This document shows positions 1,532 to 21,078 of a stretch of DNA of 38,311 nt, in pieces. The stretch comes from a virus. Taxonomy: Duplodnaviria; Heunggongvirae; Uroviricota; Caudoviricetes. The stretch's first letter is position 1, and every line of letters starts with the position of its first letter. The notes under the pieces are model-generated. The model was not told the DNA's origin and ran no database searches. It worked only from the letters and a program-made list of their open reading frames with translations. The position numbers and the translations under genes are program-made. The stretch lies in the IMG/VR virus record IMGVR_UViG_2534681700_000007, positions 1-38,311 of that record. One strand, written 5' to 3'.

Positions 1532-1741
1532 TTAATTTGAATACAATGCAATTCTCGAGGACTGAAGTTTCTCGCAATTAAAATTTATCAGTTTTACTTT
1601 CTGCTCTCTGGAAACGCCTGCTTCTTTTTTACCTGAGAGCATTTTTTCGCATTCTGATTTCGTTAGTTTAGATTTTGAATATCTTGTCCAGTTAGTAGGA
1701 GTGCCACCTTCCTTTTCAATAGTGGCGGTAATTTTATACAT
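1532..1741 (-). CDS. ydaC: Small Rac protein YdaC-like, 69 aa from MYKITATIEKEGG
   Basis: ORF 1532..1813; the internal start gives a 69-aa product and an 8-nt overlap with ralR; position between xis and ralR. Confidence 0.55.
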   Translation of the reverse strand: MYKITATIEKEGGTPTNWTRYSKSKLTKSECEKMLSGKKEAGVSREQKVKLINFNCEKLQSSRIALYSN

Positions 1742-2794: not shown

Positions 2795-5387
2795 TTGCAT
2801 ATTCCTTAGCCCAGCGGGGCAGTGATAATGTCTTAATAGCTGGCCATTCATCGGTATTCAGGCAGTCAGACAGGGTTCGCAGATTGCGGTGATATTCCTG
2901 TTGACCTGCCAGTTTTGCTTCTTCGCCCATCATGAAAATTTCAACCGGATAACGTCCGCATTCAATAGTTGTGCTGGCAACCAGAAAAACGAAAGTTGGC
3001 TGCACTCCAAACTGTGCTTCATAACCGTCACTGTAGAATGCATCCTGAACGTGATAGCGGTAGTCGTAATAAGCGGTTTTGAATCGTTGAATATCCGCCG
3101 TAGTTTTCACGTCCATGATCCAGTGAAATTCAGGGATAATTTTGTCCGGACGGCACCGACACAAAATTCCTGTTTCAGGATCTTCCCAGTAAATTGATGA
3201 TTCAGCGTGTCCGGCGCTTTCAACAAGCCATTGCCCCAGCGGCAAAGCCATAACGCTTTGATACATGAGTTCAATTTTCCGGCCTTCTTCCGCAGTGATA
3301 ACCGTTTTTCCTGTGCTTGCGCATTCCATCAGAAACGCTTTCTCTTCTTCTTTTCCGGCGTTTGTACGGCGGTTAAATTCAGGTGCTACGATAAAGCGGT
3401 TACTGAATTCTTCCGGTTCAAGTACCCGGCAGTGGAAAGCAGTTCCTAAATCGAGCGTTTTTGTCTTTGTGGTGTCCACGGGGGCATTTTTACGCCACAA
3501 ATATAGTGCCGGAGTATCAGCAATGTCATCGAGCTGAGACTTACTGATACCGGGACCCGCGTGGTAATTCTCATTCGAAATTCCGTAATAAATACCTGGC
3601 TCTATGTCTTCTACGATTACGGGATCTGCGACTTCGCCAGTTTCATCACTGCAATCGCGATGCGGATCGCTGCCAGCATTCTCATTGTGCGGATGTTCAG
3701 CGCCTTCCATTTCCTCCGGATCATTTTCCTTAGCTTCAACCTGACTCTCTTCATCGAATGTTTCCTGGTATGTTGCGTCGCCCATCACCGCACCACAGTC
3801 AGGGCAGTTATCCCCGCCAGTCTGGCCGCAGGCATTGCAGGCTATTTCCGGTTCCTGTTGCACTACTGGCTCAGGTTGATTCATATCCGGGCTGGTTTTT
3901 TCCGTTTCTGGCTGGTTCTGGTACACACAATCGCGAGTCTGGATCCCCTTTACCCATTTCGGATCGTTCGGGTCGCTAATTCCGTCAACAAATTCATCAC
4001 GTGATGCAGCAAGCAATTTATCGGCATCGACAGGATTTTTTGATGGAATGTTTTTCCGGGCTTTATGGAGTTCTGCCCGCAGTTCCTGATATTTCGCATC
4101 AACAGAATTTACCTGTGACTGAGCATCCAGCGGCTGCGTGTCCTGATGATGTTCAGTTGCGTCCGGTTCCATTGTTTCAGCCTCTCCCTGTTCAACTGCC
4201 GTTGTTCCAGATGGTTGCGGTTTTTCTTCATCATCCTGTTTTCCTTCTTCTGTTACTCGCTGCGGCATCGGGGCAGAGGAGCGACCGCAGGCAATATCCA
4301 CGATTTCCGGATCAGGGTTGGCATGATCGGTTTCAGTCAGTACTTTGTTCAGATATTCAGTGACGTGCGCGGGGATGACCTCGATCCCAATTGGTGCTTC
4401 TTTTACGGACGCAACCACGATGGCGCGGGAATAATCCAGCCCGCCAGGCATGGTGATGAATTTGTCGCGGAAAACAGAAAAGGGCGGTTTATTTTCAGCG
4501 ATAATTTCCTCAATGCGTTTAGCGTGTGCCGGATGAAGGTTATAGATGTCCAGATCCATTGAACGGGCCAGTACGCCAGTGGCTACGTCGCGCGCCAGTG
4601 ACGTCAGATCGTGTACGAAACCTTCGCCGCGATCGGTGAGGTTTCCGCCGCCAGCATTAGCACCGGAAGCCGTGCGAGTGATGTGTGAAACACGATTACC
4701 CTTCATCCACTCTTTTGTCAGCAGTCCTCGATCGGTGTAGTCAGCGTTCAGGTATGCTTCGAAAAAAGCAGTTATCAGTCCCAGGTTTGAATTACCAGGA
4801 TTAGGGAAAACTTTGTCAGTGTCACGAACCAGTTTGTGGAGTTCGCGAATTTCCAGCGGGTCGAGCAGGCTGGTTTTGTGGGAAACAGCCAGGGCAGTAA
4901 CAGCCGGTAGTTCTTCAGCCCGAGCAATGTGTAATGCCTGGAGTCCGTCGCGTGAAACGTGCGTTACCGGTTTTTCGCTGCCGTGTTGAGCAAGCCAACG
5001 AATGGGCAGTTCCTGGCCAGAAATTGGGAGTAGCATATTCTCCTCAATCTCAGTCATGTCTTCGCCGTTGACGTTGGTATTGCCTTGATAGTGAGCGTTG
5101 TCTGGTGCTGCTCCCGGTTTTAGTTCCCATGTCATGGAGTCTTTGCTGAGTTGATAGCGTTCACTCCAGGTAAAATCGATCTCACCTTCAGCGGGCAGGT
5201 CATTAACGACAGGAAAATTCGTGGCAACAGCTTTAAAATAGCTGCTCAGTTTTTTACCTGACTTAACGATCAGGTAGTCCAGAGTGGCACAGGTCGATTC
5301 AAAATCGTTGCTTGCCCACAGGACGACGTCAGGTTCACCGGATGATTTTTTCGCTTTCCGTAACAGGAAGAGTGGTTTTGTGCTCAT
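2787..5387 (-). CDS. recE: Exodeoxyribonuclease VIII RecE, 866 aa
   Basis: 866-aa ORF immediately upstream of, and overlapping, recT; length and the C-terminal nuclease region match RecE of Rac. Confidence 0.9.
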
Positions 5388-15453: not shown

Positions 15454-15606
15454 TTTCATATTGGCGAAGTAAAGGGGGTTAAATAGTATGGCTGCGGGGG
15501 CTTGAGGCTATCTGCCTTGGGCATGAAAACCAAAGGCAGATAGAAAAAGTCCCAGTTGATATTACGCATCCGGCAAGAGGCTTAACATTAATCTGGGGCC
15601 CAATCT

Positions 15607-15819
15607 ATGCCTTACAAACGTAGGTTAGTCTCTTACGTGCTGAAAGGCAAGAAGAAGCGGGCTATGAAGCAGCAAAAGGCGATGTTAATCACCCTGATCG
15701 TCATCTGTTTAACCGTTATAGTGACGGTACTGGTAACGAGGAAAGACCTCTGCGAGGTACGAATCCGAACCGACCAGACGGAGGTCGCTGTCTTCACAGC
15801 TTACGAACTTGGGGAGTAA
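15607..15819 (+). CDS. mok: Mok (modulation of killing) reading frame, 70 aa, same frame as hok and N-terminally extended
   Basis: The 70-aa ORF contains the ...KRAMKQQKAM... junction typical of chromosomal mok/hok pairs. Confidence 0.65.
   Translation: MPYKRRLVSYVLKGKKKRAMKQQKAMLITLIVICLTVIVTVLVTRKDLCEVRIRTDQTEVAVFTAYELGE
15664..15819 (+). CDS. hok: Hok/Gef-family type I toxin, 51 aa (MKQQKAMLITLIVICLTVIVTVLVTRKDLCEVRIRTDQTEVAVFTAYELGE)
   Basis: Recognised Hok-family sequence, closest in my recollection to HokD/RelF and HokC/Gef; one transmembrane helix followed by the conserved RKDLCEV...EVAVF motif. Confidence 0.85.
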   Translation: MKQQKAMLITLIVICLTVIVTVLVTRKDLCEVRIRTDQTEVAVFTAYELGE

Positions 15820-18230: not shown

Positions 18231-18520
18231 TGGTGAATTTACGTAAAGCGGCTAAAGGCCAGATGTGCCAGATCAGAATCCCTGGCTACTGCAATCACAA
18301 TCCCGAAACCTCTGTGCTGGCGCATTACAGGCTGGCGGGGACGTGCGGAACAGCGACAAAACCACACGATATGCAGGCGGCGATAGCCTGTAGCTCATGC
18401 CACGATCTAATCGACGGGCGGGTAAAAACCAGCGATTACACCAAAGAAGAATTGCGCCTGATGCATGCTGAAGGGGTTTTTCGCACACAAGAAATCTGGA
18501 GAAAGAAAGGTCATTTATGA
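18230..18520 (+). CDS. DUF1364/YbcO-like Cys-rich protein (putative nuclease), 96 aa
   Basis: Translation MVNLRKAAKGQMCQIRIPGYCNHNPETSVLAHYR...CSSCHDLIDGR resembles YbcO-family prophage proteins; start overlaps the upstream stop (ATGA-type junction). Confidence 0.6.
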   Translation: MVNLRKAAKGQMCQIRIPGYCNHNPETSVLAHYRLAGTCGTATKPHDMQAAIACSSCHDLIDGRVKTSDYTKEELRLMHAEGVFRTQEIWRKKGHL

Positions 18521-19059
18521 TTTACCCAACGAATACAGGAAAAAGCGGAGAACACCTTCGCCTCACCACGCTGGAAAGTGTCTGGATTCAGGGAAAACTA
18601 CGTATGTGGGGGCGCTGGTCGTATATTGGCGGTGGCAGGTCAGGGAATATGTTCAATCAGTTGTTGGCATCCAAAAAACTGACGAAAACAGCCATTAATG
18701 AAGCCCTGCGCAGAATGAAAAAAGCGGGAATAGAGAAAGCTGAGCTGGAAGCGTTTTTGCGAGAGATGATCAACGGCAAGCAAAAGAGCTGGCTGGCGCA
18801 TTGTACTGATGCAGAGGCGTTATGTATTGATCGAGTCATAAGTGAGGTGCTGGCAGAGCATCCAGGATTGATTTGCATTCTCCGGCAACGCTATGAAGGG
18901 CGGGGGATGACTAAGCGCAAAATGGCTGAATTGCTAAATGATGCACACCCAGAGTGGTGTTTTAGCACATGCGAAAAACGGATTGCTAATTGGTTAGCTG
19001 TTGCTGAGTATGCCCTATATATTCCCATGCGTGAATCATTTGCTGAGAAAATGGCTTGA
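18517..19059 (+). CDS. Candidate late-gene antiterminator (Q-like), 180 aa
   Basis: Last gene before a short leader with an intrinsic terminator and the lysis cassette; family assignment is by position and general resemblance only. Confidence 0.5.
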   Translation: MIYPTNTGKSGEHLRLTTLESVWIQGKLRMWGRWSYIGGGRSGNMFNQLLASKKLTKTAINEALRRMKKAGIEKAELEAFLREMINGKQKSWLAHCTDAEALCIDRVISEVLAEHPGLICILRQRYEGRGMTKRKMAELLNDAHPEWCFSTCEKRIANWLAVAEYALYIPMRESFAEKMA

Positions 19060-19138
19060 TTTCTTACGTATAAACTGCTTCAATTTTGCTATGCTTCGCA
19101 AAGCTGTATCGCGAGGCGGATTGCAGACATGGACATCG

Positions 19139-19167
19139 TAAAAAAACCGCTTAATGCGGTTTTTTTA
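19139..19167 (+). terminator. Intrinsic terminator hairpin (AAAAAAACCGC-TTAA-TGCGGTTTTTTT), symmetric A/T tracts; candidate tR'
   Basis: Read from the sequence, ~80 nt after the Q-like stop. Confidence 0.6.
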
Positions 19168-19486
19168 CGTCAGGAAAGCAGGGGAGAATGCTGCTAGTTG
19201 GGCAACTGGTCTTTCTGCTCCAAATTATAACAGAGACCAGTTATAGTTTCGGTGCTGTGTTTTTTTTACAATATTGTGATAACACATTGCTGGCGGGAGT
19301 TTTGATATTTCTTGGCAGGGGCTGATGATGCGTTATCCTGATGTCGTCAACTCATATAAAATGAGATGAGAGATCATTGCAGGGTGGTTTGTAATTCGCT
19401 GTTTAGCGGGACAATATGTTGTCTGATACAAGACACCCGACGCCTCAGATTACTATAATAAAGACGAAGCATCCTTTGTATTGACC

Positions 19487-19512
19487 AACCGCCTGTTTAG
19501 GCGGTTCTTTTT
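19487..19512 (+). terminator. Intrinsic terminator (stem AACCGCC / GGCGGTT, 6-nt loop, then CTTTTT); closes a candidate ~50-nt transcript starting after the TATAAT at 19454..19459
   Basis: Read from the sequence; see finding on the candidate small RNA. Confidence 0.4.
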
Positions 19513-20044
19513 GGGCTGGTTTATTGTATGCCAAATGATTATTAAAAAGGTTGTGTTAATAACAAAATCCGAAATAATATGCCTGCATATTTTTATCTTG
19601 CTTATATTCTGCATATTGTGCATAGCAGGCTCATCCCTGCAATCAAAACTGTATGATGAGTATTTTTTGTTTTCCTTTTTTCCAGTCATCTGATGATGAC
19701 CTGCTTCTTTTTAATCCGGATCGACATCAGTTTTTTAAGATAATTCCTGCGAGTTATATGCATAAATACCACAAACTCCGCATTTTATGTGGTTGGGAGT
19801 TGCCGGGCGCGCAGTGAGTTTGCTAAGAAAACTCCTGCATGGTGAATCCCCCTGTGCGGTGGGGTGATACCATTAACCTTTTCTGTCGCCGACAGGTATC
19901 ACGAACATTTTGTTCACCGGGAGGCACCCGGCACCATGCACTTCAATAGATTCTCTCCACATTATGGATATTCTTTCAGAATATCCCACGCAGACTTTGT
20001 GTAAATGTTAACAAATGTGCGTTTTATTTGATCTGATTCGCTGT

Positions 20045-20074
20045 TTGAGCGTCCAAAACAACGGTATATATAAT
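20045..20074 (+). promoter_or_regulatory. Candidate sigma70 promoter of the lipoprotein moron (-35 TTGAGC 20045..20050; -10 TATAAT 20069..20074)
   Basis: Read from the sequence, ~30 nt upstream of the ATG at 20104, which has a GAGGA Shine-Dalgarno. Confidence 0.35.
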
Positions 20075-20103: not shown

Positions 20104-20532
20104 ATGGGTTTTCGTAGCGCATCAATTCTTACGTTGATTATTAGTGGGATTATTATCGGGTGCACTGATGCTGTATCGACAAATTATCATGACCGTACAT
20201 CATATTACTCCGATAAAGCAATAGAGACACAGTATGTGAGTTCATCTGAACGTACTTCTGATGTTAGTGAGAATATCCGTCTGTATGCCCATCAAATCAA
20301 GAGCGCCATCGAAAAACAGTTCGGGGATGCGAGTAAGTATTCAGGAAAAGAGTGTACACTGAGAATGCATATGGCCCCGAATGGCCTTCTACTGGAGGTT
20401 AAAAGAGAAAGTGGAGACCTCGATTTATGTCGTGAAGCGATGAATGCGATAAAGAATGCTGATATACCTGCCCCCCCTTCGCCGGAAGTATATAAAGTAT
20501 TTCAAAATGGGGTGCTGGATTTTAAACCCTGA
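20104..20532 (+). CDS. Lipoprotein with C-terminal TolA domain III-like domain, 142 aa
   Basis: Signal peptide with lipobox IIG-C; the C-terminal ~85 aa (HQIKSAIEKQFGDASKYSGKECTLRMHMAPNGLLLEVKRESGDLDLCREAMNAIKNADIPAPPSPEVYKVFQNGVLDFKP) align with my recollection of E. coli TolA C-terminus (...QIKSAIESKFYDASSYAGKTCTLRIKLAPDGMLLDIKPEGGDPALCQAALAAAKLAKIPKPPSQAVYEVFKNAPLDFKP). Confidence 0.7.
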   Translation: MGFRSASILTLIISGIIIGCTDAVSTNYHDRTSYYSDKAIETQYVSSSERTSDVSENIRLYAHQIKSAIEKQFGDASKYSGKECTLRMHMAPNGLLLEVKRESGDLDLCREAMNAIKNADIPAPPSPEVYKVFQNGVLDFKP

Positions 20533-20682: not shown

Positions 20683-21078
20683 GTGGGATTAAAGAAAATC
20701 GTTATGTTGACTTTTTGGGTCGGTTTTGTTGCGGGATGCACACCTTTACACCCTTCAGATTGCCACAAAACTACTGCTACAGGTAGTTGCAGTTCAGGAC
20801 GCTGGGATGATCAGGATGAATGGGGGGCGCAAGCGCGGGGAATCAGAGCTGCAATTAATGCCAAACTTGATGAGCCGCATAACTGGAAAGGGAAAAAATG
20901 CAGGTTGCATATGGAATTCTCTCAGGATGGCACGGCGTTAAAAATATCTACCAGTAACGGTGATAAAGCCTATTGCGAAGCGATAAAGTCCGCAGCTCAT
21001 AAAGCCAAATTTCCGGCCTTCAACAATCCGGAAGTCTACAGAGATTTTCAGAAATCTGGCTTTGACATGCGAGGTTAG
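20683..21078 (+). CDS. Second, more divergent lipoprotein with TolA domain III-like C-terminus, 131 aa, GTG start
   Basis: GAGGAG Shine-Dalgarno 6 nt upstream of the GTG; lipobox VAG-C; C-terminal region (GKKCRLHMEFSQDGTALKISTSNGDKAYCEAIKSAAHKAKFPAFNNPEVYRDFQKSGFDMRG) keeps the same conserved Cys pair and xPEVYxxFQ motif as the upstream paralog. Confidence 0.65.
   Translation: MGLKKIVMLTFWVGFVAGCTPLHPSDCHKTTATGSCSSGRWDDQDEWGAQARGIRAAINAKLDEPHNWKGKKCRLHMEFSQDGTALKISTSNGDKAYCEAIKSAAHKAKFPAFNNPEVYRDFQKSGFDMRG

Follow-up and report, generated by a model that had tools for sequence, protein, structure and literature searches.

A structured non-coding element with a putative nested small RNA downstream of the Q-like antiterminator gene in a Rac-type Escherichia coli prophage

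The late leader, the Q-like gene and the flagged promoter-terminator unit

The DNA analyzed here, referred to as the window, is a stretch of 38,311 nt (38 kb) and constitutes a nearly complete Rac-type lambdoid prophage of Escherichia coli. Rfam searches located the RalA antitoxin RNA at window positions 1557-1735 (225 bits) and a sok-like antisense RNA at 15496-15669 (92 bits), which mark the RalR/RalA and hok/sok toxin-antitoxin loci of this prophage; in its relatives trkG is located past the lysis genes. Our subject is a small unit on the plus strand at 19430-19512. On its 5' side lie a DUF1367/NinB-like gene, ybcO and then the gene of a 180-aa DUF1133 protein, and on its 3' side two lipoprotein genes with TolA C-terminal domains and an S21-type holin gene. 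The lipoprotein genes (20104-20532 and 20683-21078) are inserted between Q and the holin in a layout resembling that of 'morons', and are preceded by a promoter with 10/12 consensus matches at 20045-20074 (TTGAGC, 18 bp, TATAAT).

The DUF1133 protein is encoded at 18517-19059 on the plus strand. It matched Pfam PF06576 at 2.5e-107, reached the threshold of PF06530 with 26.1 bits and matched PHROG 753, 'anti-termination protein Q-like', at 2e-79, and its N-terminal part showed weak similarity to Q21. An AF2 model of the protein was of moderate confidence (pLDDT 64), and the top ten PDB matches of this model in Foldseek were all Q21 (probability 1.0, TM 0.49-0.65). Profile matches and predicted fold together confirmed the assignment as a Q-type antiterminator of the Q21 fold. 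Among related Q proteins, that of phage vB_Apl-pPE4, with Actinobacillus as recorded host, was 88.6% identical to the window protein. A 100%-identical fragment was present on contig JARKOR010000130.1 of a 'Candidatus Nanosynbacter' (Saccharibacteria) MAG, which is probably due to binning contamination. One E. coli strain (NZ_AP021890.1) carried an IS1A insertion in the same intergenic spacer downstream of Q.

A sequence-only reading of the window had described the unit as a promoter and a terminator in an AT-rich spacer downstream of the Q-like gene, enclosing an RNA of about 50 nt. Reading of the sequence and a consensus scan recovered all of the described motifs in place: the -35-like AAGACA (4/6 matches) at 19430-19435, a perfect -10 TATAAT at 19454-19459 after an 18-bp spacer, a GC-rich hairpin and CTTTTT. 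The promoter thus had 10/12 matches in total, and its -35-like part was specific to the window variant. The unit begins 371 nt after the Q stop codon, and the GC content of the surrounding DNA is 34-42%. The intrinsic terminator (19487-19512) is formed by the stem-loop AACCGCC-TGTTTA-GGCGGTT at 19487-19506, with 8 pairs of which 5 are G-C, and a U-tract (CTTTTT) that is broken by a C. The terminator had been placed about 45 nt downstream of the promoter; this holds for the distance between the -10 and the U-run, whereas the hairpin itself already starts 27 nt after the -10.

According to the fold prediction, an RNA starting near 19466 would be 47 nt long and would consist of an open 5' end of 21 nt and the terminator hairpin (-13 kcal/mol, z = -2.7). 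The predicted single-stranded 5' region, GAAGCAUCCUUUGUAUUGACC at 19466-19486, is a candidate seed. When antisense targets of the 25-nt 5' region were searched inside the window, the best non-self interaction was -25.5 kcal/mol, and the values obtained with shuffled seeds (-22 to -30) enclosed it.

In the 3-kb neighborhood, both promoter-like sites (9 vs 6.5 +/- 2.9 expected) and terminator-like sites (3 vs 2.3 +/- 1.5 expected) were at background level. The flagged pair was the sole promoter with at least 10/12 matches that was followed by a terminator within 15-80 nt on either strand of the 38-kb window. Since a first-order Markov null model already predicts 0.2 such pairs per window, the pattern by itself is not significant; the significance of the unit derives from its conservation in relatives.

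The overlapping open reading frames of 70 and 78 aa had been taken for artefacts, and our data agree: PGAP called no gene here, no Pfam match was obtained, and relatives carried indels and stop codons. The 70-aa ORF (19481-19693, plus strand; a 52-aa form starts at the ATG at 19535) would encode a hydrophobic, membrane-like peptide and is not preceded by a Shine-Dalgarno sequence. Copies with at least 99% identity differed by 1- and 2-nt indels at 19663-19669, namely by the length of a T-run and by a 1-nt G deletion, and this region appears slippage-prone and non-coding. In a 79%-identical homolog every frame of the ORF region contained stop codons.

A conserved, structured RNA element of about 295 nt

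The notion of a self-contained unit of 83 bp did not survive the comparison with related loci. A profile built with nhmmer from 49 relatives, with the window row left out, matched the window at 19226-19520 (E 2.7e-39, 129 bits). The flagged 83 bp therefore form the 3' end of a conserved non-coding element of about 295 nt on the plus strand, which was also traced by BLAST and alignments and whose upstream part is a structured, covarying RNA.

In hundreds of E. coli genomes the 1-kb spacer was present at 100% identity and without annotation, strains APEC O2-211, HS30-1 and CP53 being examples. The exact window copy occurred in about 8% of complete assemblies and intact relatives in at least a further 5%; EAEC 042 (NC_017626, at about 1549939-1550220) is one of the strains with an intact copy. 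More than 440 genomes carried identical copies, which points to recent spread, and these copies are therefore uninformative with regard to selection. Diverged copies (65-77% identity) occurred in E. coli, in E. ruysiae and on many contigs of IMG/VR. When the spacer was compared by BLAST with loci fetched through the Q protein, 19431-19512 recurred in E. ruysiae at 76% identity amid otherwise unrelated sequence, and a sensitive search revealed copies in other E. coli prophages that were 65-77% identical over about 19261-19512.

Scanning viral contigs with two motifs yielded 76 unique relatives, which fall into about nine subfamilies. The first scan used the 14-mer ATTGACCAACCGCC; its matches were mostly due to chance and the conservation of that 14-mer is biased, and the scan was redone with an independent motif. 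Likewise, the conservation of CAUCCYUUGYAUUGACCAACC in the main cluster is partly forced by the pattern of the 14-mer search. The element motif was absent from the K-12 prophages DLP12 and Qin. Phage Rac-SA53, with a Q protein 76% identical to that of the window, has another downstream leader without the element and is uninformative.

The terminator was found in every subfamily, its stems covarying between CCGCC/GGCGG and CCACC/GGUGG, and the DNA 3' of it was unrelated between family members. Most copies are located after a phage tRNA-Thr/tRNA-Gly pair and before the holin gene, at 100-250 nt from the tRNA genes and without a clear promoter of their own. In some prophages the tRNA-Thr/tRNA-Gly pair is flanked by two diverged copies of the element (L149, 2189-2519 and 2963-3293; L102, 2134-2464 and 2900-3230), each with a TATAAT-like hexamer and a terminator.

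The RNA structure was analyzed with RNAalifold on an alignment of the element (A1), which yielded 43 consensus pairs in eight helices. In this alignment 95.9% of the cells were paired, compared to 39-59% if the partners were slid by one to three columns, and 23 pairs showed compensatory change versus 6-11 in the slid controls; the observed covariation score was reached in 0 of 500 shuffles. The upstream part of the element hence behaves, by its pattern of sequence change, as a structured, covarying RNA. Read from 5' to 3', intact relatives comprise a 5' hairpin, a multi-helix junction, an A/U-rich linker with a -10-like hexamer, a single strand of about 20 nt and a Rho-independent terminator with a long U-tail. 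The junction is closed by the long-range helix GAGGYG/CRCCUC (columns 170-175/285-290), which ends immediately 5' of the -10-like hexamer; here 99.3% of the cells were paired and U-A was replaced by C-G in 21 sequences.

These domains are unequally preserved in the window copy. Its 5' hairpin domain (19270-19345; helices 2 and 3, identified by RNAalifold and pair counts) is retained. Here GAUAACACAU pairs with AUGCGUUAUC, the corresponding pairing in relatives being GAAUGGUGCAU with AUGCAUCAUUC, and compensatory changes were seen in 9 of the 12 helix 2 pairs. The 3' module is intact and, together with the 5' hairpin, constitutes the best-preserved part. The central junction domain at 19363-19446 has decayed: in the closing helix, formed by GAGAUG (19363-19368) and CGCCUC (19441-19446), 5 of 6 pairs are kept, helices 5 and 6 are unpaired, and the UCGGG-AGGCA-CCCGA hairpin has lost its 5' arm to a deletion of 17 nt. 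In helices 5-7 only one cell of the alignment is unpaired, and it comes from the window row.

Searches against Rfam pointed to the STnc100 family (RF02076). Both element copies of L149 matched this model over its full length, with 36 bits (E 6.7e-6) and 29.9 bits (E 2.4e-4), values that are below its gathering score of 47 bits. The window element went undetected by the covariance model of STnc100, also when matches with E <= 10 were admitted. For 19430-19512 no Rfam family was obtained at the gathering threshold or at E <= 10, only noise such as Hrs13 with 12.7 bits, and no family reached its threshold on the elements of 14 related loci. A canonical STnc100 copy is present on the plus strand of the window at 19807-19993 (86.6 bits vs the gathering score of 47). 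Because this copy is situated 300 nt downstream of the flagged unit, the window leader contains two paralogous elements in tandem. No U-run follows the 3' hairpin of the canonical copy (GGATATTC/GAATATCC). In E. coli A39 (L259) two tandem STnc100-like copies (about 1000-1400) follow a truncated element (about 400-560), in which the 5' hairpin is joined straight to linker and terminator and the junction is missing.

By these sequence and structure comparisons, the elements are a distant, unannotated and tRNA-linked branch of the STnc100/PasD (EcOnc13) superfamily. PasD has already been connected with STnc100 in a 2026 preprint; for EcOnc13, nothing was found in the main texts of the literature. 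An identity of the element with PasA, PasB or PasC was rejected, as the E2348/69 loci gave no BLAST match. In addition, PasB is encoded on the other strand, within the tail region, and both PasA and PasC run antisense to the late operon.

Late promoter cassette and the -10-like hexamer

We then considered the flagged unit in relation to the Q-dependent late promoter. In the canonical arrangement the promoter PR' comes after the Q gene and leads into a pause element and then a terminator (10.1101/651190), and an sRNA can arise from such a PR'-tR' cassette, as exemplified by StxS (PMC7547250). Among 131 element-bearing loci, 90 included a Q gene, and in 90 of 90 cases it was located upstream on the same strand, 170-5000 nt away. 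These Q genes belonged to four unrelated types: DUF1133 (68 loci), a 222-aa type (15), a quuD-like type (6) and a 207-aa type (1), the last being the 'antitermination protein' of L252. Some of the loci carried the element in two copies. On the basis of this association test, with four Q families, variable distances and double copies, the flagged unit was rejected as PR'-tR'. Moreover, no -10-like pause hexamer (A2 + T6) was conserved at +1 to +25 in alignment A1.

A better candidate for the PR'-tR' cassette of the window is located right after the Q stop codon at 19087-19166 on the plus strand. Its extended -10 (TGcTATGCT, 19087-19095) is followed by a small hairpin and, at 19140-19166, by a strong terminator with A and T runs on its flanks; the predicted RNA of about 65 nt folds with -24 kcal/mol (z = -4.2). 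The arrangement of TAnGCT, often with TGn upstream, hairpin and terminator recurred within 60-110 nt of the Q stop codon in about 17 loci with a DUF1133-type Q from eight or more genera, including Escherichia, Citrobacter, Enterobacter, Klebsiella, Buttiauxella and Phytobacter, and the conservation of the cassette in BLAST tracked that of Q. The cassette at 19087-19166, and not the flagged site, is hence the likely window analogue of 6S RNA/StxS, judged by motif order and co-occurrence with Q. IsrK (RF01394) scored 21.6 bits (E 0.037) on 19093-19166, below its 50 bits and mostly due to similarity of the terminator. In three loci with Q proteins 84-89% identical to that of the window (L004, L005, L008) the post-Q cassette differs, consisting of TTGACT, 17-18 bp, CTATAT or TATATT and another terminator, which points to an exchange of promoter modules inside a single Q family.

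The two halves of the flagged promoter behaved differently across the family. At the aligned -35 position relatives have GAGGCA or GGCACC instead of AAGACA; the -35 was poor in all of them and not conserved, and in the window AAGACA was created by the 17-nt deletion. The -10-like hexamer, WAYAAT, was present in 9 of 9 clusters of the 3' module. It precedes the U-tract by 39-55 nt, with 39-48 nt in eight clusters and 51-55 nt in that of L161. The intact relative L003 has AACAAT (within 3850-3900). A perfect TATAAT occurred in five clusters and TACAAT, TATAAA, AATAAT or TAAAAT in the others, and the conservation of A2, A4, A5 and T6 with a variable position 3 corresponds to the pattern of a sigma-70 -10. 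Most relatives match the consensus at 4-5 of 6 positions, the window at all. The distance from the junction hairpin to the hexamer varied from 4 to 50 nt across clusters, and in the truncated A39 copy, which lacks the junction, TAAAAT is found 46 nt before the U-tract. The linkers are A/U-rich and the clusters share ancestry, and shuffled linkers reached 5/6 matches in 14-40% of the trials per cluster. The evidence for a conserved -10 from these alignments is therefore good but not decisive.

As the hexamer keeps a fixed distance to the U-tract across subfamilies, a nested sRNA of about 46 nt is plausible, and we give the production of a short transcript from this internal site even or slightly better prospects. 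The long form would be without an obvious source in a lysogen, because upstream of the window element no tRNA gene was found and the consensus scan detected no promoter with at least 9/12 matches between tR' and the element.

Interpretation and comparison with known small RNAs

The alignments demonstrate homology along the whole element, covariation in its upstream part, a conserved terminator and a conserved placement of the hexamer relative to that terminator. We infer that the hexamer would act as an internal sigma-70 promoter for a nested short sRNA. The flagged unit would then be the 3' module of an element of the STnc100/PasD branch that gives rise to a nested sigma-70-dependent sRNA of about 46 nt, an explanation that we regard as probable, with considerable room for doubt. 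The elements sit in the leader or 'moron' zone of the late operon, past Q and in the same orientation. In a lysogen, a weak-to-moderate sigma-70 promoter would yield an RNA from about 19466 to 19512 (about 46 nt), composed of a seed and a terminator hairpin with U-tail, a type of module that is bound by Hfq; it would be comparable with the AgvB/AsxR prophage sRNAs. The short form would probably be the only lysogen product of the window copy, since its junction has decayed and the deletion put AAGACA 18 bp from TATAAT. During lytic growth, Q-modified polymerase starting from PR' (about 19087-19102) would pass tR' (19140-19166) as well as the flagged terminator without stopping; the latter may also shield the lysis genes from stray upstream transcription. 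The proposal of a small RNA of about 50 nt made by the sequence-only reading thus stands insofar as the unit is non-coding, the terminator is genuine and conserved, an RNA ends here and a primary transcript of about 46 nt is plausible.

A broader version of this explanation, which we consider possible though doubtful, regards the whole element as an RNA gene with two outputs, a structured RNA of about 250-300 nt and the nested primary sRNA of about 46 nt, serving as a platform with a swappable seed; the Rac-type copy would represent a stage at which only the short output is left. The long RNA would stem from tRNA-operon or late transcription and the short one from the conserved internal -10. 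The 5' seed would vary by subfamily while the terminator module stays fixed, which would make the platform a counterpart of AgvB/AsxR in sense orientation.

The strongest challenge comes from the possibility that the hexamer is no promoter and that the element is made solely within longer transcripts, be it as trailer of a tRNA operon, by read-through or in late transcription. The hexamer might in this case work at the RNA level, as an A/U-rich site for Hfq or RNase E or a sigma-dependent pause. The role of the terminator would be to finish the long RNA and, in lysogens, to keep read-through out of the lysis genes. We hold all parts of this to be less probable, yet worth serious attention: the covariation shows that the sequence just 5' of the hexamer acts as RNA, the relatives have no usable -35, and the elements follow tRNA genes at 100-250 nt with no clear promoter of their own. 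Among known prophage RNAs, the 173-nt PasD starts upstream of its junction, and mature PasA is a cleavage product of a longer transcript. On the other hand, the conservation of the hexamer fits a sigma-70 -10 and not an ARN or RNase E motif, it is a perfect TATAAT in five of nine clusters with its distance tied to the terminator rather than to the RNA junction, and the long form of the window lacks a source in lysogens. The promoter-terminator match might, alternatively, be the chance outcome of the 17-nt deletion in a decaying, inert copy from which nothing functional is made. This would be in line with the broken helices 5-7, the copy being missed by the STnc100 model, the C that interrupts the U-tract, a pattern within chance expectation and more than 440 identical copies that give no evidence of selection; we nevertheless consider it unlikely, as precisely the 3' module and the 5' hairpin are best preserved and the -10 is at consensus, compared to 4-5 of 6 matches in most relatives.

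Two further explanations fared worse. The sequence of promoter and terminator past Q and ahead of the lysis genes is the canonical layout of a Q-dependent late cassette with PR', pause site and tR' (10.1101/651190; PMC7547250), and the short RNA would in that event be the analogue of lambda 6S RNA or StxS. The four unrelated Q families at distances of 170-5000 nt with occasional double copies, the other cassette right after the Q stop codon, which tracks the DUF1133-type Q, and the lack of a conserved -10-like pause element at +1 to +25 render this very unlikely. Least probable of all, to a degree that we would hardly defend, is a leader or attenuator of the small hydrophobic ORF in its 70-aa or 52-aa form. 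The ORF is present and encodes a membrane-like peptide, but it has neither a Shine-Dalgarno sequence nor a Pfam match or PGAP call, it is disrupted by frameshifting indels at 19663-19669 and by stop codons in the 79%-identical homolog, and past the terminator relatives continue into unrelated DNA.

Should the nested short RNA be produced, an unannotated prophage sRNA would be present in several hundred genomes of E. coli; prophage sRNAs of the same genome zone (AgvB, AsxR, StxS, PasD) are known to rewire host regulation. If it is not made, the flagged unit is an ordinary relic in a prophage leader. The analysis furthermore defines a structured RNA family beyond the reach of Rfam and locates the likely Q-utilization cassette of antiterminators of the DUF1133/Q21-fold type.

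With regard to known systems, the 3' external transcribed spacer RNAs of tRNA operons, such as 3'ETS-leuZ, resemble the element in that most relatives are positioned directly after tRNA genes of the same strand and end at the first strong terminator; the window copy differs by having no tRNA upstream. Lambda 6S RNA and StxS share with the flagged unit a constitutive-looking promoter, a terminator close behind, the location past Q and the predicted read-through by Q-modified polymerase, whereas the flagged unit is neither adjacent to Q nor specific for a Q type and shows no conserved -10-like pause element in alignment A1. Their counterpart in the window is more likely to be found at about 19102-19166.

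The closest likeness is to STnc100/PasD. PasD is an EPEC prophage sRNA of 173 nt, verified by Northern blot and supported by RIL-seq (PMC8550237). Both groups occupy late leaders of lambdoid prophages, where they follow Q on its strand and precede the lysis genes, and the better-preserved relatives of the element share the junction with a long-range helix, the GGGAGGCRCC hairpin, the open 3' stretch and the terminator. The branch described here is set apart by its closing helix, GAGGYG/CRCCUC instead of GCAUGGUG/CACCAUGC in STnc100, by an extra 5' hairpin domain, by its usual position after a tRNA-Thr/Gly pair and by the -10-like hexamer 39-55 nt before the U-tract.

No sequence similarity to AgvB and AsxR was seen. 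Their covariance models (RF02702, RF02703) had no match in the window, whether the gathering threshold or a limit of E <= 10 was applied, nor in the 14 related loci. These prophage sRNAs of 51-60 nt, which have a primary start and are located downstream of PR' in EHEC prophages (PMC4104026), are comparable with the putative short RNA of the window (46-47 nt predicted) in size. Their further features are a primary start of their own, a place in the moron zone past PR' and a conserved 3' terminator part joined to a variable 5' part. AsxR runs antisense to the late transcript (stx2AB); the window unit, in contrast, is in sense orientation and nested in a larger RNA element.
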